A stretch of 51,984 bases of DNA from an uncultured Candidatus Saccharibacteria bacterium (GTDB lineage Bacteria; Patescibacteriota; Minisyncoccia; 2-02-FULL-40-12; GWA2-44-9). How positions within the stretch are numbered: the first letter of the stretch is position 1; the number at the start of each line of letters is the position of its first letter. Location of the stretch: the NCBI GenBank assembly GCA_964366725.1, contig CAYIUL010000001.1, forward strand, positions 1 to 51,984. The letters run 5' to 3'. The notes under the pieces are model-generated. The model had not been told where the DNA came from. It did not search any database and saw only the letters and a program-made list of their open reading frames with translations. Shown here piece after piece: positions 12,462 to 37,211 of this stretch. A program made the translations under genes and the position numbers.

Positions 12462-13532
12462 ATGCGTATCGCACTCGTTCATGACTGGCTCAACAACCTC
12501 GGCGGGGCCGAGCGTGTGCTCATAGAACTCCATAAGACATTTCCCGACGCGCCAATATATGCCCTTTTTTACAACAAAAAATTCGTCCGCGAACATCTGC
12601 CTAACGCGAACATAATTCCCAGCGGGTTGCAAAAATTCCCGTTCATTACAAAAACATATCCCATTTTACTTCCTCTGATGCCGAGCGTCGTAGAATCATT
12701 CGACATGTCCGACTACGATGTCGTTATCTCCTCTTCGGTCATATTCTCAAAAGGACTGGTATTAAAGCCAAAAACAAAACACATCTGCTATTGCTATAGT
12801 CCGACCAGGTTCCTATGGGACAGGCACACCGAATACGAACACAGTTCATGGCCTGCAAAAATCGCCCAGCACCTCCTGCGCGTCTGGGACCGGCAGGCCT
12901 CCGACAGGGTGGACCAGTTTGTGGCCATATCGGAAAACGTGAAAGACAGGATACAAAAATACTACCGCAGGGATTCCAAAATAATCTACCCTCCGGTATC
13001 TCTAACGACACGGGGTGTCGTTAGCCCCAAAACTGTGGATAAGTCGGGATACTATTTGATAGTGAGCCGCTTATTTCCTTATAAAAATATAGACATCGCG
13101 ATAGAAGCATTCAATAAGCTTGGATACGAGCTGGTGATAGTGGGGGACGGGCCGGATATGGTTCGTTTGAAAAAGATGGCCGGAAAGAATATCAAACTTG
13201 TCGGATATAAGACCGACAAAGAGGTGGCCGAGTATTACAGGAATTGCAAAGCGTTCATAATGCCGCAGGAAGAGGACTTCGGATTGACGCCTTTGGAGGC
13301 GATGAGCTTTGGCAAGCCGGTGCTGGCCTTAAGAAAAGGCGGGGCGTTGGAAACAATAACCGAAGGCCTCCATGGGGAGTTCTTTGACGACCCGATACCG
13401 GAGGCCTTAGCCGACGGCGTCCGCCGATTGAATGAAAATTACCCCTCATACAAGCGAATGGAAATTCTCTATCAGGCCCAAAAATTCTCAAGGGACAGAT
13501 TCAAAAGAGAGATAATGGAGCTATTGGTGTAA
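12462..13532 (+). CDS. GT4-family glycosyltransferase
   Basis: 356 aa. Motifs: GGAERV, VSRLFPYKN, EEDFGLTPLEAMSFGKPV (EX7E region). Confidence 0.85.
   Translation: MRIALVHDWLNNLGGAERVLIELHKTFPDAPIYALFYNKKFVREHLPNANIIPSGLQKFPFITKTYPILLPLMPSVVESFDMSDYDVVISSSVIFSKGLVLKPKTKHICYCYSPTRFLWDRHTEYEHSSWPAKIAQHLLRVWDRQASDRVDQFVAISENVKDRIQKYYRRDSKIIYPPVSLTTRGVVSPKTVDKSGYYLIVSRLFPYKNIDIAIEAFNKLGYELVIVGDGPDMVRLKKMAGKNIKLVGYKTDKEVAEYYRNCKAFIMPQEEDFGLTPLEAMSFGKPVLALRKGGALETITEGLHGEFFDDPIPEALADGVRRLNENYPSYKRMEILYQAQKFSRDRFKREIMELLV
13002..13024. repeat. in-CDS palindrome, TAACGAC family, copy A
   Basis: CTAACGACAC-ggg-GTGTCGTTAG with 10-bp arms, translated LTTRGVVS inside the GT4 gene. Confidence 0.85.
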
Positions 13533-15575: not shown

Positions 15576-16442
15576 GTGAATATCAGTGTTGTTACCATCA
15601 ACTACAACAGTTCGGAGAACACGATAAAACTTTTGGAGTCCCTCAAAAACCAGACCGACAAAAATTTTAATGTTTTGGTCATTGATAATAACTCCGGTCC
15701 GGACCAGAAAGCAATATTAAAGAACTACCGGACAGAAGAAACTAATATCGTATTTATCGAAAACGAACATAACCTGGGTTTTTCCGGAGGCAACAATGTC
15801 GGGATCAAGAAAGCCCTTGCAGATGGCGCTGACTGGATTCTCCTGCTCAATAACGATACTTGGGTAGAAAGTGACTTTATCCATCGTCTAAAGACAAATT
15901 TAGAAGGCAAGGAGGGGATAATGGGGTTGGCCATAGACGAAGGGGGCAGAACCGTTTACGCCGGTAAAATTGAATGGCTAAAACCCACACTTATCCACAT
16001 AACGACACGGGGTGTCGTTAGTCCACAGGCATATGCTATCGGGGGGGCGATGGCGGTGCATAAGAACGTATTTGAAAAAATAGGGTTCTTGGACGAGAGA
16101 TATTTTCTTTATTTTGAGGATGCCGATTACAGCATAAGGGCCCAAAAGGCGAGCATTCCCGTGGAGTTTTTGCCTGAAGTTCAGGTCCGCCATTCTGTCT
16201 CGGCGTCAACCAAAAAACTCGGCTCGCCTCTCATTCTGCGCTACCACTACCGCAATGCTTTGTATTTCAATTTGAAACACGGGCCATGGTATATCAAACT
16301 GCTTGTCTTGCCCTGGAGCTGGTTTGTGGCTGTAAAACAGATACTTAAGCTGACAGCGGGAAGAAACGCCAAAGAGTCAGAAGCAATATTGGCCGGGGTC
16401 GTAGATTTTTATAAAAACAATTACGGAAAACTTCATGTATAA
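15576..16442 (+). CDS. GT2-family glycosyltransferase
   Basis: 288 aa, GTG start. Motifs: VVTINYNS, VIDNNS, LLNNDT, YFEDADYS. Confidence 0.85.
   Translation: MNISVVTINYNSSENTIKLLESLKNQTDKNFNVLVIDNNSGPDQKAILKNYRTEETNIVFIENEHNLGFSGGNNVGIKKALADGADWILLLNNDTWVESDFIHRLKTNLEGKEGIMGLAIDEGGRTVYAGKIEWLKPTLIHITTRGVVSPQAYAIGGAMAVHKNVFEKIGFLDERYFLYFEDADYSIRAQKASIPVEFLPEVQVRHSVSASTKKLGSPLILRYHYRNALYFNLKHGPWYIKLLVLPWSWFVAVKQILKLTAGRNAKESEAILAGVVDFYKNNYGKLHV
16000..16020. repeat. in-CDS palindrome, TAACGAC family, copy B
   Basis: TAACGACAC-ggg-GTGTCGTTA, translated ITTRGVVS inside the GT2 gene. Confidence 0.85.
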
Positions 16443-24334: not shown

Positions 24335-24410
24335 ATCGTTTAGAAGTTCAACTTCCAAACAAACTTCCAAGCATCTGGCGGAAAAGCTGGGTTTTTGTTA
24401 GATTTGTCAA

Positions 24411-26979: not shown

Positions 26980-27728
26980 TATTTTATATTAATGTACTTG
27001 GCCCAATAATCGTAGAGGGTTTTTGTGGCTTTGAGATCTCCAAAACAATATTTTGCTATGTCAAACGCTTTTTGGTCCCTGAAAAGTTGAGCAACATCAT
27101 CACCGGTAACTCCTTTTGACTTGGGACTTTCGATCCCGAATGCCTGGCACCACATATGAAGATTGCCCTTCCTCCGAACAGCGCCAAAGAAGGTTAGCCG
27201 ATCCAGCAAATCAATGTGTTCATCGTAGTAACGGTTAGGCATCAGATTTTTGGTGGGCTTAATTTTGTGTATCGCCGAACGGACAAGAATGTAAGGGCAG
27301 TCAAAAGTCCTCCCGTTAAAAGTAACAAATTGGTCGTAGTGCGAAACAACATCCCAAAAATTTTTGAGAATTTCTTTCTCATCGGCGCAAGGAATGTATT
27401 GGGCGTCTTTCCCGATTTCTCCCAAATGACTCTGATTTGGTTGAGAAATCGAGGATCCTCGATTTTGTTTCTCCGAAGGAGACAAAATCGGGACTTCGTT
27501 CTCATGTTCCCCCTGCGAATTAAAATAAACCGCGCCTTTATCGGTATCGGGGTTCAATATGCCGATGGCCACCACCTCGCCCGTCAGGGGAGAGAAGCCC
27601 AGGCCTTCTTTGACGGCCTCGACCTCTTCGGGGGTCTCGGCAAAGCGCAAAAGAGTTTCTTGGGATTTTTCATCCAGCGAATCAAATTCAACGCCTACGG
27701 TTTCAATATCAAATATAAGTCGCGGCAT
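26979..27728 (-). CDS. DEDD-type 3'-5' exonuclease (RNase H-like fold, PolB-exonuclease-like)
   Basis: 249 aa. Motifs: LIFDIETVG (Exo I), FNGRTFDCPYI (Exo II), YCFGDLKAT (Exo III-like). Confidence 0.7.
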   Translation of the reverse strand: MPRLIFDIETVGVEFDSLDEKSQETLLRFAETPEEVEAVKEGLGFSPLTGEVVAIGILNPDTDKGAVYFNSQGEHENEVPILSPSEKQNRGSSISQPNQSHLGEIGKDAQYIPCADEKEILKNFWDVVSHYDQFVTFNGRTFDCPYILVRSAIHKIKPTKNLMPNRYYDEHIDLLDRLTFFGAVRRKGNLHMWCQAFGIESPKSKGVTGDDVAQLFRDQKAFDIAKYCFGDLKATKTLYDYWAKYINIK

Positions 27729-31339: not shown

Positions 31340-32568
31340 ACAAGTCCCCTGTCGCCTATTTTGGCAGAAAATTCGTCTAGAACTTTCCTTAACTCCTCTT
31401 TTTCTTTGTTGAAATCAAAATTTTCAATTATTTTTTGAACTTCGGACAAAGTTTCCAGTGATTTACCCGAATCGGCTTTTTTCCATTTCAACAATTCTTT
31501 GTCGTACTCCGGCTCTTTCCAAAAATAGTCAAAACCGTGAGCATCGCTCAATTTTTCCAGTCGTTCTGTGATGAGCGGCACCGCTTTGTCGGGCACATCT
31601 ATGTTGGTCAGTTCTTTGAACTTGGCAGGATCAAGTTTTTTAATATATTGGGAATTGAACCAGTTAAGCTTGTCTATGTTAAATACCGCTCCGGACTTGT
31701 GGACTTTGGCCAATTCAAACTCTTTAACCATTTCTTCTTTAGTCAGAATCTCCTCGCCGAATGTGTAGCTCATCGCGCCCAGAAAATTCAGAAGTGCTTC
31801 GGGGAGATAATCTTTTTTGTAGTCAACAACCGCAGTCGCGCCGTGTCGTTTAGAGAGTTTGGAGCGGTCCGGGGCAAGTATAAGCGGCAAGTGAGCAAAT
31901 TGCGGGACTTGTTTGCCGAGAGCTTCGTAGAGCAATATTTGTTTCGGTGTGTTTGAAATGTGATCCTCTCCGCGGATAACGTGGCTAATTTTCATGTCGA
32001 TATCGTCAATAACAGTAGTAAAGTTATAGAGCAATCTTTCAAAACCGTTACCCAAACTTACATCGCTCATCAGTTTGGCTTCAAACTCCACGCGACCACG
32101 AATAATGTCGTCAAAAACAATCTTCCTTTCAGGGTTCCTATCAATGGCCAGACGGATCAGTCCTCCGGGGGTTTTCCCTTCTTCGGTATTCTTATGTTCA
32201 CAATCGTGAAGCGGTGGTTGTTTATTTTGGGCTTGTTGTTTTTTCTCTTCTTCTAGTTCTTCTTTTGAGTGGTGACAGTAAAACGCCTTGCCTTCGGAAA
32301 GAAGTTTTTCTAATACCGCTTTATATTTATCCATTCTATCTGATTGTCGAACCACGTCTCTATCCCATTTCAATCCCAGCCATTCAAGGGAATCATAAAT
32401 TGCCTGCTCGTATTCTTTAGTTGAGCGTTCTTTGTCGGTATCTTCGATGCGCAAATAAAAAGTTCCCTCGTGTTTGCGGGCAAATAACCAATTATATAAT
32501 GCCGACTGGGCAGTACCGACATGCAAAAAACCGGTTGGACTTGGAGCAATTCTGACTTTTACTTTCAT
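31213..32568 (-). CDS. gltX: glutamyl-tRNA synthetase
   Basis: 451 aa. RIAPSPTGFLHVGTA (HIGH) and KLSKRHG (KMSKS). Confidence 0.95.
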   Translation of the reverse strand: MKVKVRIAPSPTGFLHVGTAQSALYNWLFARKHEGTFYLRIEDTDKERSTKEYEQAIYDSLEWLGLKWDRDVVRQSDRMDKYKAVLEKLLSEGKAFYCHHSKEELEEEKKQQAQNKQPPLHDCEHKNTEEGKTPGGLIRLAIDRNPERKIVFDDIIRGRVEFEAKLMSDVSLGNGFERLLYNFTTVIDDIDMKISHVIRGEDHISNTPKQILLYEALGKQVPQFAHLPLILAPDRSKLSKRHGATAVVDYKKDYLPEALLNFLGAMSYTFGEEILTKEEMVKEFELAKVHKSGAVFNIDKLNWFNSQYIKKLDPAKFKELTNIDVPDKAVPLITERLEKLSDAHGFDYFWKEPEYDKELLKWKKADSGKSLETLSEVQKIIENFDFNKEKEELRKVLDEFSAKIGDRGLVYWPLRVALTGKEKSPDPVELAVVLGKKEVVKRIGKALTFLK

Positions 32569-32613
32569 ACCCTTTATTATAACGTAGTTATGGTATTATT
32601 CCAGCATAAATCC

Positions 32614-34593
32614 ATGTTTGTCATTGAAGTCATTCCCTTAACCATTCTGCCCCCGAACGTTCCTCAAATCTTGAGCTACTTTTTTGATAAAAAACTCGAG
32701 CGTGGAGCGGTAGTCGTGGTAATTATCGGGAGCCGGAGCGTCAAGGCGATAGTGATCGATTCAATTCCCCTGACGGAACATAAGCTCGGTTTAAAAAAAG
32801 CGGAGTTCCAACTCAAGAAGCTTTCCGAAGTCCTGATGGAGACGCCGCAGATATCCGATCGGCAGCTCCGCATCGCTCTCTGGCTTTCCAAGACCTACTA
32901 TTCGCCTTTGGGCATATGTCTTAAAACCGTCCTGCCTCCGTTCTTTTTGAAGAAAAAATTCCCAATATTGCCGGAGGTGAGTATAAAAACAGAGGAAGAA
33001 GTGAAAAGAAAACCGGATCTCATTTTGACCGACGCCAAAAATGCGTTGAAGAATGTCCTGCCCCTGGTCAAGAGCGCGGTAAGCAAGAACGGACAGGCGG
33101 TTTTGATCGTTCCCGATAACCAAACTCTCGATTATTTTTGCGACAATTTAAAAGAGTTTGATACAACAAAGATATCTTCGGAAATGGGAAATAAGAAGTT
33201 TTTTGAGGCCTGGCAGAATATCCAGAGCGGGAAGACCAAAATATTGGTAGGCACAAGACAGGCGCTTCTTTTTCCCTTCAAGAAACTGACGCTGGTAATT
33301 GTCGACGACCCTCTGCACGAGTTCTATAAATCCGACATGTCTCCAAAATACAATACGGCCGATCTCGCCGGTTATGTAGCCAAAATAAACAACTGCCGCC
33401 TTTTATACCTGTCCCCCATCACAGGGGTCGAAAATTATTTCCTCTTGAAAAACAAAACATACGAATTGATAGACAAGACCTCGGCCTCGCCGCCCATTAA
33501 GATCGTCAACATGGTCAATGAGATAAAATCGGGAAATTTCTCTCTGTTAAGCAGGGAGTTAAAAAGTCAGATACTTTCCTTGGTTAATCCAACGAGTCAA
33601 AATAAAAAAATCCTCATTTTCTCACCGCGCCGGGGACATTCGGGCGTTCTTGTCTGCCAGAATTGCGGCTGGACAGCGAAGTGCCCGAATTGCGAAACGG
33701 CATACAGAATACATCGGGCCGAAGATCTGGTCCTAATGTGCCATCACTGCGGAAACACGCAGCGGCTCCCGGATCACTGCCCTAACTGCAACAGCTCCAA
33801 ACTAAAGCCGACGGGCCCGGCCGGAAGCCAGAAAATATATGAGGAGGTCAGAAGGGTTCTATCCCAGAATGAAATAAGCGGTCGCGGAGTGGGATTCCCT
33901 GTCGCCCGGCCGGAGGCCGTCGGCGACAAAGGGAACTCTGTCGTGCCTGTGCTGGTCCTGGATACGGACGTAACGACAAACCAAACCGAGGAAGAAGAAG
34001 TAATGTCCGAGATAGCCCTGCCAAAAACGTCCGTTCTCATTGCCACCCAGATGATATTTAGCTACCGCTACGACCACATCTTCGATTTCGTAGCCATTAT
34101 GAATACAGATTCCCTTATTCAATCTCCCGATTTCCGCACGGAGGAACGGCTGTTCTATCAGCTGGAAAAACTACTCGATTTCAAGCCGCAACAACTGCTT
34201 ATCCAGACCTTCAACCCCGAGAACCAAGCTATCTTGATGGCCTCACAAAGAAATTACAAGGACTTTTACGAAAAAGAACTGGCTGTACGGCAGGCCCTCT
34301 CGTATCCCCCATTCTCCAGATTGATAAAATTAACCTTCCGGCATCCCGACCGCGAAGTGGCTTCGCGCGAAGCAAGAATACTGGCCGGCAAACTAAAAAT
34401 GGCTGTAGTTCAATTAAAGTTATCGGATAAAATAAAAATAACCGACTCCTCTCCCGGATACACCGAAAAAGAACGCGGACTTTATACATACAACATAGTA
34501 ATCAAATCCCTCAACGGCCAAACCCCGAGAGAAATATTGAAATTCGTCCCCTCAAGGTGGCTGATAGATGTCGACCCTCGTTCCCTTCTATAG
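32614..34593 (+). CDS. priA: primosomal protein N' (PriA)-like, ATPase motifs degenerate
   Basis: 659 aa from ATG 32614. Cys-rich Zn region CQNCGWTAKCPNCETAY ... CHHCGN ... CPNC, plus VLIATQM. No GxGKT Walker A. DEEH is replaced by DDPLHE. No GRAGR. Confidence 0.8.
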   Translation: MFVIEVIPLTILPPNVPQILSYFFDKKLERGAVVVVIIGSRSVKAIVIDSIPLTEHKLGLKKAEFQLKKLSEVLMETPQISDRQLRIALWLSKTYYSPLGICLKTVLPPFFLKKKFPILPEVSIKTEEEVKRKPDLILTDAKNALKNVLPLVKSAVSKNGQAVLIVPDNQTLDYFCDNLKEFDTTKISSEMGNKKFFEAWQNIQSGKTKILVGTRQALLFPFKKLTLVIVDDPLHEFYKSDMSPKYNTADLAGYVAKINNCRLLYLSPITGVENYFLLKNKTYELIDKTSASPPIKIVNMVNEIKSGNFSLLSRELKSQILSLVNPTSQNKKILIFSPRRGHSGVLVCQNCGWTAKCPNCETAYRIHRAEDLVLMCHHCGNTQRLPDHCPNCNSSKLKPTGPAGSQKIYEEVRRVLSQNEISGRGVGFPVARPEAVGDKGNSVVPVLVLDTDVTTNQTEEEEVMSEIALPKTSVLIATQMIFSYRYDHIFDFVAIMNTDSLIQSPDFRTEERLFYQLEKLLDFKPQQLLIQTFNPENQAILMASQRNYKDFYEKELAVRQALSYPPFSRLIKLTFRHPDREVASREARILAGKLKMAVVQLKLSDKIKITDSSPGYTEKERGLYTYNIVIKSLNGQTPREILKFVPSRWLIDVDPRSLL

Positions 34594-34630
34594 AGTGTAC
34601 AAATGTACAAAGGGCGCCTTTGTACACTCT
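34592..34630. repeat. REP-like hairpin, left flank of the Y1 transposase
   Basis: AGAGTGTACAAATGTACAAAGG-gcg-CCTTTGTACACTCT. Core is GTACAAAGG-gcg-CCTTTGTAC at 34605-34625. Confidence 0.8.
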
Positions 34631-34641
34631 GCTCCCCTTTT

Positions 34642-35280
34642 TCAAAAGTCACCCTTATCTAGTAATAAATCCTCCATATCTTTTTTTGATTTTATAATTT
34701 CGTAAGACGATTCGGTGAATTCTTTAAAATCTTGAATATTCTTAAATTGATTGCCAATCAAAGCTGTGTCGCAAAGATCACTTTGACTGTTTAGGTAGGC
34801 AGGATAGCTGCTCCAGATATATTCGGCCGAATTTTTTATAAGACCTGCTACTTTAGGGTTTAAATGTATATAAGCTGCAAGCCAAGTTAGATAATCATTA
34901 TCATCCACTATTATTTGCCTGAACCGATCTTGAAAAACATGGCCCACATGCTTATATTTTTTATTGGAATATTTAGAGTAGCTTGTGCAGAGTTTTAGAA
35001 TTAATTTGCTCGGCGGTATTTCATTGTTTTGTTTTATAAGCAAATGAAAATGATTCGGCATCAAACAATATGCCAAAAGAGTAAATGAGCCCGACGGAAG
35101 AGGTTGGATTCTATAATATCTGTTTTTCTCATATGTTTCGGGAAATAAATTTTGCCTTAATCGCAATAGGAAAAATTGATAGTCCTCTCTATTGATAAAG
35201 ATGTTGTTTTTGAAATTGCCCCTATTATAAATATGGTAAATCTCGCCAACTCCTGTTTGTTTATAATCTCGCGTATTCAT
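34642..35280 (-). CDS. IS200-like / REP-associated tyrosine (Y1, HUH) transposase
   Basis: 212 aa. YHIYNRGN, LAYCLMPNHFHLLIKQ (HUH), GHVFQDRF, YIHLNPKVAGL (catalytic Tyr region). Confidence 0.8.
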   Translation of the reverse strand: MNTRDYKQTGVGEIYHIYNRGNFKNNIFINREDYQFFLLRLRQNLFPETYEKNRYYRIQPLPSGSFTLLAYCLMPNHFHLLIKQNNEIPPSKLILKLCTSYSKYSNKKYKHVGHVFQDRFRQIIVDDNDYLTWLAAYIHLNPKVAGLIKNSAEYIWSSYPAYLNSQSDLCDTALIGNQFKNIQDFKEFTESSYEIIKSKKDMEDLLLDKGDF

Positions 35281-35303
35281 GATCCTACCTTACTTTAATT
35301 CTC

Positions 35304-35336
35304 CCAACTGTGCAAAGGCGCCCTTTGTACGGTTGG
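35304..35336. repeat. REP-like hairpin, right flank of the Y1 transposase
   Basis: CCAACTGTGCAAAGG-cgc-CCTTTGTACGGTTGG. The core at 35310-35330 is the reverse complement of the left core apart from 1 mismatch. Confidence 0.8.
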
Positions 35337-35351: not shown

Positions 35352-35413
35352 AAAACAAAAAGACCCCGCACACAGCAGGTGCTCGCGCTATGCGCGAGGC
35401 CTTTCTGTGTCGG
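35352..35413 (-). terminator. compound intrinsic terminator
   Basis: Inner hairpin CTCGCGC-tat-GCGCGAG nested in an outer CCGCACACAG/CTGTGTCGG stem. On the minus strand it is followed by TCTTTTTGTTTT. Confidence 0.65.
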
Positions 35414-35738: not shown

Positions 35739-35839
35739 GACTTCCTCCTGCGCCTCGCCATCTGGCTCAGCGCTAAATTGTTCGTGTACAAAGTAATCAC
35801 ATTATACCACGCTTATTATATATATGCAAGTTAAGTAGG

Positions 35840-35868
35840 TTGATTAATGTTGCTAAAAACTGTATAAT
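35840..35868 (+). promoter_or_regulatory. sigma70-like promoter, extended -10, probably leaderless def transcript
   Basis: TTGATT, 17-nt spacer, TGtTATAAT. The -10 ends 7 nt before the def GTG. Confidence 0.6.
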
Positions 35869-35875
35869 TTAGAGC

Positions 35876-36337
35876 GTGGAAATCACAAAACTACCTAACA
35901 AAATACTGGCTAAAAAGATGGCTGGGGTGGCCCTGGAAGATATAAAGAAAGGTTCCTACCGGAAGCTGGTTTCGGATATGAAAAAGGCGATGAGGGAGAA
36001 TGAGGGTGTGGGTCTCGCGGCAAATCAGATCGGCAAGGACTTGAGCCTTTTCGTGATAGATATCAAGACCGCTGACGCATACAAGGTACCCGAGGTATAT
36101 TTCAACCCCGAAATTACTGAGTATTCTCACGAAACTGACGCGATGGAAGAAGGCTGTTTATCCATTCCGGAATTTTACGTTCCCATCACGCGGGCAAAAA
36201 AAATAAAAATCAAAGCCGTGGACGAAAACGGCAACAAGATAAAATTCAGAGCCAGGGGTTTCTTGGCGAGGGTTCTCCAGCACGAAACCGACCATCTTAA
36301 CGGCAAGACAATAAAAGACAGGGCCAATGGGAAATAA
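35876..36337 (+). CDS. def: peptide deformylase
   Basis: 153 aa. Motifs: GVGLAANQIG, EGCLSIP, QHETDHLNG. Confidence 0.92.
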   Translation: MEITKLPNKILAKKMAGVALEDIKKGSYRKLVSDMKKAMRENEGVGLAANQIGKDLSLFVIDIKTADAYKVPEVYFNPEITEYSHETDAMEEGCLSIPEFYVPITRAKKIKIKAVDENGNKIKFRARGFLARVLQHETDHLNGKTIKDRANGK

Positions 36338-37211
36338 AATAAACATTGTATTTTTTGGAACCCCTGAATTTGCCGTGGCGCCAGTTTTAGGGGCTCTCAT
36401 CAAAAATGGCTACAACGTTTCCCGATTTCAGCCGCATTCTCTAAAGGACGAGCGGGTTTTCGAAGAATTTAAAGAATCAAACCCGGATCTTTGTATTGTG
36501 GCCGCTTACGGAAAAATACTTCCGGCACGGTATCTCGATATACCAAAATATGGATTCATAAATGTCCATCCGTCTCTGCTCCCCAAATACCGGGGCCCGT
36601 CCCCTATTCAAACCGTGATCTTGAACGGCGACCAAGAAACCGGGGTTACCCTCTTGATGGTGGATGCGAAAGTTGACCATGGCGCTATTCTGGCAAGTTC
36701 CAAATACCAAATTCCTGAAGATAAATATTTTACCGAGACGGCAAAAGAACTTTTCGAATTAGGAGCAAAGTTATTGATAGAAATTCTTCCGAAATATATT
36801 AACGGTGAGATCGAGCCGAAAGAGCAAGACCACAGCCAAGCCACATTCACAAAAATGTTCAAAAGAGAAGACGGAAAAATAAACTGGCATGACCCGGCAC
36901 AAGAAATTTATAACCGTATCCGCGCCTTGAACCCGGAACCGGGCACATGGACGACATGGCACCCTTCAACAAGCTCAGGGCAAGCAGACAAAGTTATCAA
37001 CATTTCCGATGTAACGACCTTCAAGGTCGTTAGTCCACAGGGTGGAGATTTAGTGCCGGGAACAGTTAAAAAAGTTGACAATAAGGTTGTCGTGGCCACC
37101 TCTTCGGGTTATCTTGAACTCATATCCATCCAGCTTGAGGGCGGGAAAAAAATGGATGCCAAAAGTTTTATCAATGGCCATCCTAACTTCCTGAACTCGC
37201 AGCTGGAATAG
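36327..37211 (+). CDS. fmt: methionyl-tRNA formyltransferase (N-terminal loop deleted)
   Basis: 294 aa. Motifs: IVFFGTPEFA, INVHPSLLPKYRGPSPIQ, DAKVDHG. About 30 aa are missing where the [10 protein letters not shown] loop is expected. Confidence 0.88.
   Translation: MGNKINIVFFGTPEFAVAPVLGALIKNGYNVSRFQPHSLKDERVFEEFKESNPDLCIVAAYGKILPARYLDIPKYGFINVHPSLLPKYRGPSPIQTVILNGDQETGVTLLMVDAKVDHGAILASSKYQIPEDKYFTETAKELFELGAKLLIEILPKYINGEIEPKEQDHSQATFTKMFKREDGKINWHDPAQEIYNRIRALNPEPGTWTTWHPSTSSGQADKVINISDVTTFKVVSPQGGDLVPGTVKKVDNKVVVATSSGYLELISIQLEGGKKMDAKSFINGHPNFLNSQLE
37012..37032. repeat. in-CDS palindrome, TAACGAC family, copy C (variant)
   Basis: TAACGACC-ttcaa-GGTCGTTA, translated VTTFKVVS in fmt. 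The 3' flank GTCGTTAGTCCACAGG is identical to copy B. Confidence 0.7.

Follow-up and report, generated by a model that had tools for sequence, protein, structure and literature searches.

A RAYT-like Y1 gene between inverted hairpins in the priA-def spacer of a Patescibacteria genome

Anatomy of the locus

The window analyzed here is the whole of a 51,984-nt stretch (contig CAYIUL010000001.1, contig C1 in our numbering) from an ultra-small groundwater bacterium of the Patescibacteria with a genome of about 0.5 Mb; the assembly that was analyzed (GCA_964366725.1) comprises 522 kb in 55 contigs, is 86% complete, and has a GC content of 46.6%. Between priA and def, the window carries a gene for a 212-aa Y1 protein with an HUH motif, and this gene is bracketed by two copies of a hairpin with the core motif GTACAAAGG-GCG-CCTTTGTAC, the second copy being inverted (Table 1). 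Measured from hairpin to hairpin, the unit is 745 bp long and contains the single Y1 gene. An earlier reading of the letters of this window, referred to here as the original prediction, had described an AT-rich 212-aa open reading frame (ORF) with the motifs NHFHLL and YIHLNP in the gene order priA-Y1-def. Both motifs are present in the minus-strand ORF, the GC content of the gene is 33 to 35% compared to 46.6% genome-wide, and the domains of both neighbors were verified by Pfam. The arrangement recurs unchanged in four further contigs that were assembled independently from the same aquifer, and no presence/absence polymorphism of the arrangement was found among the other samples from that aquifer. 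No signal above noise was obtained when the region was scanned for Rfam families and tRNAs.

The left core, GTACAAAGGGCGCCTTTGTAC (34605-34625), matches the motif without mismatches, and the right core, GTGCAAAGGCGCCCTTTGTAC (35310-35330), matches it with one. As had been predicted, the copies are inverted and both cores are embedded in longer imperfect stems. The left hairpin has a 10-bp inner stem (TGTACAAAGG/CCTTTGTACA, 34604-34613 with 34617-34626) and a loop that reads GCG on the plus strand. It also has an additional half-site, GTGTACAAA (34595-34603), which allows 34592-34603 to pair with 34619-34630 as an alternative 12-bp outer stem that overlaps the final two bases of the priA stop codon. 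The right hairpin, CCAACTGTGCAAAGG-CGC-CCTTTGTACGGTTGG, forms 15 pairs on the plus strand, including G-T pairs, with two positions that are A-C mismatches on the minus strand; there are 23 nt between its end and the ATG of the Y1 gene. The left and right sites are identical at 24 of 27 nt, and the match between the copies is better in the inverted orientation (27 nt, 89%) than in the direct orientation (26 nt, 81%). The motif occurs twice in the window compared to an expectation of 0.01, and two or more matches were obtained in 0 of 100 shuffles. When folded as single-stranded DNA, the hairpins gave z values of -3.2 to -4.7, with the left hairpin reaching -9.8 to -10.5 kcal/mol (z of about -4).

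The protein was matched by Pfam Y1_Tnp (PF01797) at 41.3 bits against a cut-off of 23 (42 bits in the genome-wide search). Its HUH motif is H77-F78-H79, the catalytic tyrosine is Y137 within YIHLNP, and the tail carries the motif W156-S157-S158; among 29 homologues there is no variation in the HUH histidines, Y137, N141-P142, or WSS. In the AlphaFold2 (AF2) model (pLDDT 81), Y137 lies on helix 128-144. The best Foldseek match is 4ER8, the Escherichia coli TnpA-REP protein with its repetitive extragenic palindromic (REP) hairpin (E = 5e-6, TM 0.63), compared to which the TnpA chains of IS200, IS608, and ISDra2 are weaker matches (E = 2e-3 to 1e-2). The best 23 matches are all Y1 transposases (4ER8, 2F4F, 2XM3, 2A6M, 2EC2, and others) except for a Thg1 chain at rank 2. 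The solved structures were reached only through the fold search, as the family profile gave no Y1 match when compared with PDB sequences. A profile alignment with E. coli RayT (NC_000913.3) placed HUH, Q-RF, and YIxxNP...W.S in register, with a weak E value of 0.009. The signature NHFH, VFQDRF, YIHLNP, and WSS fits TnpAY1 subclass 2.1 (Table 1 of PMC6006769) in what is a motif comparison only. The NCBIfam search gave no match to an IS200 model, and Pfam detected no C-terminal helix-turn-helix (HTH; Bac_DnaA_C, HTH_23, and HTH_28) at E <= 10 in this protein or its three paralogues. The Pfam score, fold, and motifs agree with the predicted membership of the IS200/RAYT superfamily, and the motifs, the fold rank, and the alignment to E. 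coli RayT support assignment of the protein to the REP-associated tyrosine transposase (RAYT)/TnpA-REP side of the Y1 family rather than to the IS200 side.

The family is large: more than 7,900 of the 8,000 candidates that were scored gave matches, mostly from Patescibacteria where named, and among the matches listed the proteins are 205 to 232 aa long. Representatives of clusters at 50% identity numbered 22,305 at E <= 1e-3 and 53 at E <= 1e-30. Carriage by known plasmids and phages was limited to matches in 12 plasmid records and 1 phage record, all at less than 36% identity.

Hairpins in relatives and the extra DNA between priA and def

We examined homologous loci in species-representative genomes for repeats shared by the upstream and downstream flanks of the Y1 gene, using 74 loci for which both flanks were available and a repeat score of at least 14. 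Matching flank repeats were present at 57 of the 74 loci but in only 9 of 592 mismatched-pair controls, and in 35 of the 57 matching loci they were self-complementary. The sequence of the stem varies by lineage while its arms stay complementary (for example, CAAAGG/CCTTTG versus CAATGG/CCATTG). The closest relatives, with 65 to 70% identity, have hairpins of the same design as those described here. One of them (L100) has GTGTGCAATGG-CGC-CCATTGCACAC on both sides and shares with the present locus the additional 3' half-site on the downstream copy, another (L104) has ACAAAGG-GCG/CGC-CCTTTGT, inverted as here, and the third (L105) has a 36-nt perfect palindrome on each side. On these comparisons, the hairpins appear to be cognate sites of the Y1 enzyme family and not chance repeats.

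There are exactly four Y1 genes in this genome. The other three, on contigs C5, C6, and C32, encode proteins 37 to 44% identical to the one between priA and def, and each of the four genes has a private hairpin pair on its flanks. The hairpins of the paralogues are present in about 10 copies (C6 type), 4 copies, of which one is in frame within its own gene (C5 type), and 3 copies (C32 type). No near-identical second copy of the Y1 gene was found in this genome or its population. In a genome of another genus of the same family (G024, 95% complete), the identical hairpin, TACAAAGG-GCG-CCTTTGTA, is present 13 times. These copies form 36-nt perfectly palindromic inverted doublets, of which two flank a Y1 gene whose protein is 59% identical to the one described here; four doublets and one singlet are located elsewhere in that genome. 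Dispersal of a Y1 gene's own type of hairpin, at a low level, was also observed in G027 (four extra doublets) and G003 (three extra copies), and no extra copies were found in G015 and G019. As far as can be judged from sequence, hairpins of this enzyme family do move.

In three genomes of the same genus, only 9, 36, and 43 nt separate the priA stop codon from the start of def, compared to 1,282 nt here. The 1.28-kb block that is missing in the congeners consists of the Y1 unit and an orphan gene, and the extra DNA begins no more than 2 nt from the left hairpin. Because priA and def are so close together in the three congeners, the block is most readily taken as a recent insertion that occurred after the split of this species from them. 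The insertion would have split a priA-def-fmt string that is tightly spaced in the congeners, and hence probably cotranscribed there, and would have brought in the orphan gene. One of these three congeners (G003) carries a Y1 homologue with 54% identity at a different locus, in the order hairpin-Y1-hairpin-HIT-domain gene-hairpin (L090, G003:C30:10641-14231, with the insert at positions 1437-2884), and all three of its hairpins are direct. The right edge of that insert is exactly the foot of the third hairpin, and the corresponding site is empty in the genome studied here, where the bordering genes are 12 nt apart (C26:6275-6288). The closest homologues of the Y1 gene are found in other gene contexts, adjoining RNase J or a PaaX-like gene. 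The distribution is patchy, with a match in 22 of the 41 genomes searched and the best scores coming from other families and not from the same genus. In these respects the priA-def unit resembles a mobile cassette more closely than it does a RAYT of long residence.

A GC-rich orphan gene next to the Y1 unit had been part of the original prediction, and this description is accurate. The ORF lies in DNA of 51 to 52% GC, and a search of 5.8 billion proteins gave it a single match, which is nearly identical and comes from the same population. The gene has a strong ribosome-binding site, GGAGGA, and its product has an N-terminal hydrophobic helix. The terminator-like hairpin that ends the gene would separate its transcript from the Y1 unit. 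If the HIT-gene insert of G003 is taken as a model, the orphan gene is a candidate cargo gene, and GTGTACAAAG, a solitary half-site, could be what is left of a third hairpin that closed the cargo segment. The insertion cut def off from priA, and def therefore needs its own promoter. A promoter-like site was found just upstream of def (Table 1), there is no Shine-Dalgarno sequence between this site (35840-35876 region) and the GTG start codon, and the def mRNA may have been leaderless or nearly so since the insertion.

Interpretation and alternatives

We think it likely that the locus is a REPtron/TIRtron-type cassette in which a class-2 Y1 HUH gene lies between two inverted 21-nt recognition hairpins and which was inserted, together with the orphan gene, into the priA-def spacer after the split from the congeners. 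A mechanism can be proposed by homology with the solved E. coli TnpA-REP and IS608/ISDra2 TnpA systems. The hairpins would extrude from single-stranded DNA, such as the lagging-strand template, and the Y1 protein would bind the stem-loop of the single-stranded hairpin. H77 and H79 would hold a metal ion, Tyr137 would cut beside the hairpin with formation of a 5'-phosphotyrosine link, and the protein would then rejoin the strands. If hairpins were moved alone, the products would be dispersed REP- or REPIN-like copies, as in G024; if everything between two hairpins were moved, the product would be a gene cassette with cargo, as here and in G003.

Several observations weigh against this interpretation. 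The original prediction had suggested a search for more copies of the hairpin in the genome and had named their absence as grounds for its refutation. Our search for further GTACAAAGG-type hairpins in the 522-kb, 86%-complete, 55-contig assembly found none besides the two flanking copies, and "REP" in the sense of a dispersed repeat family does not apply to this genome. In our reading, the system is newly arrived in this genome, where only its two bounding hairpins are present. The GT[AG]G guide tetranucleotide is also missing, as neither GTAG nor GTGG is present at the hairpin foot and the stems start with GTAC or GTGC. The sole NCBIfam match is the REP-associated tyrosine transposase model NF047646 (REP_Tyr_transpos), with a score of 50.5 bits that is below the cut-off of 80. 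The predicted description of the protein as "RAYT-like" is therefore upheld by the Y---NP motif, the 4ER8 fold, and the RayT alignment but not by the NCBIfam score or the hairpin foot. Because the orphan gene lies outside the hairpin pair, a two-step arrival of the block is conceivable, as is a route that does not involve the Y1 enzyme. The priA-def spacers of two other genera hold unrelated, lineage-specific ORFs (Table 1), and the spacer may be one that tolerates insertions and serves as a recurrent landing site. In addition, all three congeners have the C6-type Y1 gene in a syntenic position, with 71 to 74% identity. This gene behaves as a classical vertically inherited RAYT would, which shows that members of the family can be long-term residents as well.

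The unit could instead be an autonomous insertion sequence (IS) of the IS200/IS605 type, which would move as a whole by peel-and-paste with the hairpins as its left and right ends, unrelated to REP dispersal. Its length of 745 bp, its one Y1 gene, and its subterminal hairpins are what such an element would have, and the insertion relative to the congeners, the patchy distribution, and the position of the best same-genus homologue at another locus fit as well. The flank repeats match better in the direct than in the inverted orientation at 34 of the 57 related loci, as do the ends of IS200. We nevertheless regard this explanation as unlikely. The motif is Y---NP and not the Y---Q of subclass 1.1 (PMC6006769 Table 1), the protein, at 212 aa and with its conserved tail, is longer than the about 150 aa of that subclass, no NCBIfam IS200 model was matched, and the fold is nearer to 4ER8 than to IS200/IS608 TnpA. 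Neither the genome nor the population has near-identical copies of the unit, tnpB is not present, and the two hairpins here are inverted rather than direct. The identical hairpin also spreads without the gene in G024.

It would also be conceivable that the hairpins are transcription signals only, the left one as a bidirectional terminator for priA and Y1 and the right one as an operator or insulator 5' of Y1, and that the Y1 gene is a domesticated host gene which no longer moves DNA. The left hairpin is indeed placed between the convergent stop codons of priA and Y1 and may also end transcription of both genes, the terminator scan picked out the right hairpin on the plus strand, extra hairpin copies are missing from this genome, and IS200 uses an end hairpin as a terminator. 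However, the terminator scan gave no flag for the left hairpin, which has no adjacent T-run, and the right hairpin follows no plus-strand gene. The 24 of 27 nt that both sites have in common are not needed for termination. The original prediction had considered the possibility that the hairpins are terminators and nothing else; the matching flanks at 57 of 74 loci in relatives, the private hairpin pairs of all four Y1 genes, and the dispersal of the identical hairpin as doublets in G024 indicate that they are more than that. With sister hairpin families inserted in frame into genes and a locus that appears to be a recent insertion rather than an old resident, we consider a purely transcriptional role very improbable. 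An origin of the palindrome pair by chance or as an assembly artifact has a negligible probability and was refuted by the shuffle test and by the independent assembly of the arrangement in the four other contigs from the same aquifer.

Sister hairpin families and comparison with known systems

The C6-type hairpin, TAACGACAC-N3-GTGTCGTTA, forms a REP-like family whose cognate Y1 gene is that of contig C6. Two of its copies in the window are in frame within a GT4 gene (12462..13532) and a GT2 gene (15576..16442) and encode TTRGVVS. The same-genus orthologues of these two genes have a diverged hairpin at matching positions, encoding TTLKVV or TTFKVV, and the insertions in GT4 and GT2 are therefore old and shared. 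A further in-frame hairpin is present in fmt (36327..37211), where TAACGACCTT-C-AAGGTCGTTA followed by GTCCACAGG (37011-37040, with the hairpin at approximately 37011-37033) encodes TTFKVVSP. The hairpin in fmt belongs to the C6-type family as a variant, and contig C40 has one copy similar to it. The C5-type hairpin, TGTTTGGAAGTT-G-AACTTCCAAACA, is located before, after, and in frame within its own Y1 gene, in the last case between the N-terminal strand and the HUH motif. For the C32 paralogue, a Y1 gene with 43% identity in G001 (L142, G001:C9) is located on the opposite side of a common conserved neighbor gene, which suggests that Y1 units turn over locally around one spot. The palindrome AAATCGAGGATCCTCGATTT or its 16-nt core is present six times in the genome (Table 1), and no Y1 gene flanked by this hairpin was found in the assembly.

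Perfect DnaA boxes (TTATCCACA) are located 0 to 9 nt from Y1-type hairpins in 8 of the 19 cases in which such a box is present in this genome. DnaA boxes also abut GTACAAAGG-type hairpins in L104 (19, 688) and in G024 (L141, approximately 4 nt left of the left doublet). A family-wide association was evaluated and rejected, as there were 0 exact boxes near 80 loci, and relaxed boxes were present at 0.21 per kb near the loci versus 0.12 per kb away from them. We mention the boxes as no more than an oddity of particular lineages. In the tails of the four Y1 paralogues, Pfam detected no DnaA-like HTH.

A broader proposal can be made tentatively, and we hold it to be doubtful: ultra-small Patescibacteria genomes may keep several orthogonal Y1-hairpin systems at different stages, with fresh cargo cassettes, such as this locus and that of G003, next to old vertical residents whose hairpins have spread, including in frame into the housekeeping genes GT4, GT2, and fmt, and in some lineages with perfect DnaA boxes. 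If this were true, the family would be a natural series of stages in the conversion of an IS-like Y1 element to a resident of the REP/RAYT type, and the DnaA boxes would suggest a link with the initiation of replication or with strand opening driven by DnaA as the supply of single-stranded substrate.

Table 1. Coordinates of the features described in the text (window positions unless a contig or locus is given as a prefix)
Feature	Coordinates	Strand	Evidence or remark
Y1 (HUH) gene, RAYT/TnpA-REP class, 212 aa	34642..35280	-	ORF, Pfam, conserved motifs, fold
Hairpin 3' of Y1 gene, left edge of inserted DNA	34592..34630	.	Sequence, inverted-repeat search, single-stranded DNA fold
Hairpin 5' of Y1 gene, inverted copy of the left hairpin	35304..35336	.	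CCAACTGTGCAAAGG-CGC-CCTTTGTACGGTTGG
priA, left neighbor	32521..34593	+	Pfam PriA_3primeBD, PriA_C, Zn_ribbon_PriA
priA stop codon TAG	34591-34593	+	Overlaps start of outer hairpin stem
def, right neighbor	35876..36337	+	Pfam Pep_deformylase, E = 2e-47
Orphan ORF, 105 aa	35421..35738	-	Within the 1.28-kb block; no Pfam match
Intrinsic-terminator-like hairpin with T-run, ends orphan gene	35358..35410	-	Inverted-repeat and terminator scans
Solitary half-site GTGTACAAAG	35784..35793	+	Identical to hairpin left arm; weak, 10-mer match
Promoter-like TTGATT-17-TATAAT	35840..35868	+	Consensus match only; ends 7 nt before def start
Unrelated priA-def spacer ORF, 210 aa	G010, L099 1953-2801		
Unrelated priA-def spacer ORF, 118 aa	G015, L098 1950-2510		Membrane-like
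C6-type hairpin copies	13003-13043, 15991-16020; C5:12422; C6:15549, 17175, 17897, 18129; C17:7031; C12:10654; C51:1217		
C5-type hairpin copies	C5:711-735, 951-975, 1483-1507; window 24337-24361		Window copy between an ORF and an ABC transporter gene
Palindrome AAATCGAGGATCCTCGATTT or 16-nt core	27446-27465; C17:7135, C18:8978, C20:642, C23:3078, C42:3047		
DnaA boxes by hairpins	13034-13042, 15991-15999; C6:15579, 17205, 17927, 18159; C12:10673; C41:2628		Perfect boxes, TTATCCACA

The spread of RAYT enzymes and their hairpins, and whether the gene unit itself moves, are still argued mainly from Proteobacteria. Patescibacteria are not mentioned in the RAYT literature that we found and are not included in the survey of PMC6006769. 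The locus described here offers a clean and small test case, as the enzyme has 212 aa and the hairpin 21 nt, the insertion is dated and its site is empty in three congeners, and the identical hairpin is already dispersed in another genus. Genomes of about 0.5 Mb that have been stripped of most dispensable genes still hold four such systems.

The locus resembles IS200/IS605 elements (IS200, IS608, and ISDra2) in its size of about 0.7 kb, its Y1 HUH enzyme, and the subterminal hairpins at its ends. Like those elements, the unit behaves as an insertion, and in G003 it apparently carries passenger genes between hairpins. It differs from them in its Y---NP motif, its 212-aa protein with a tail domain, its single copy, its inverted hairpins, and the weaker fold match, and there is no tnpB-like ORF near the Y1 gene. 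The Y---NP motif is that of TnpAY1 class 2, whereas Y---Q is that of class 1, IS200 subclass 1.1 (PMC6006769 Table 1).

The likeness to REPtrons (E. coli RayT/YafM, 4ER8; Pseudomonas REPIN-RAYT; TnpAY1 class 2) includes the HUH motif with a single Tyr in Y---NP, the best fold match, and the single gene between inverted copies of a private hairpin. It extends to the presence of divergent Y1 types with one copy each per genome, each with its own hairpin family, and, as in REPINs, to the dispersal of the hairpin without the gene as inverted doublets in the related genome G024. Unlike in REPtrons, there are no dispersed copies in this genome, the GT[AG]G foot is missing, the NCBIfam score is under the cut-off, and the host is a Patescibacteria with a 0.5-Mb genome. 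RAYTs of groups 2 and 3 are described as vertically inherited (PMC5581495), whereas the gene unit described here is insertion-polymorphic within its genus. Copies of REP within genes have been described as unique to subclass 2.4 (PMC6006769).

With TIRtrons and TIRYTs, the locus shares the signature NH[YF]H, FQ, Y[IV]HLNP, and SS (PMC6006769 Table 1), a gene located between terminal inverted repeats, and a patchy spread that is consistent with horizontal transfer. Bertels group 1 and the TIRYTs described by Di Nocera et al. 2013 are the equivalents of subclass 2.1 (PMC6006769; PMC3733652). Some of the terminal inverted repeats of the TIRYTs are self-complementary and no more than moderately repeated, or unique (PMC3733652). 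No C-terminal HTH was detected in the present protein, in contrast to TIRtrons/TIRYTs, and its subclass is assigned from motifs only. For subclass 2.1, Quentin et al. 2018 found no REP-like structures (PMC6006769), whereas the flanks here are clean hairpins that are dispersed in relatives. The layout of a gene between inverted cognate hairpins or repeats has already been described for REPtrons and TIRtrons (PMC6006769, PMC3733652, PMC5581495); the additions from this locus are the Patescibacteria host, the insertion with its empty sites, and a subclass-2.1-like protein that is accompanied by hairpins.

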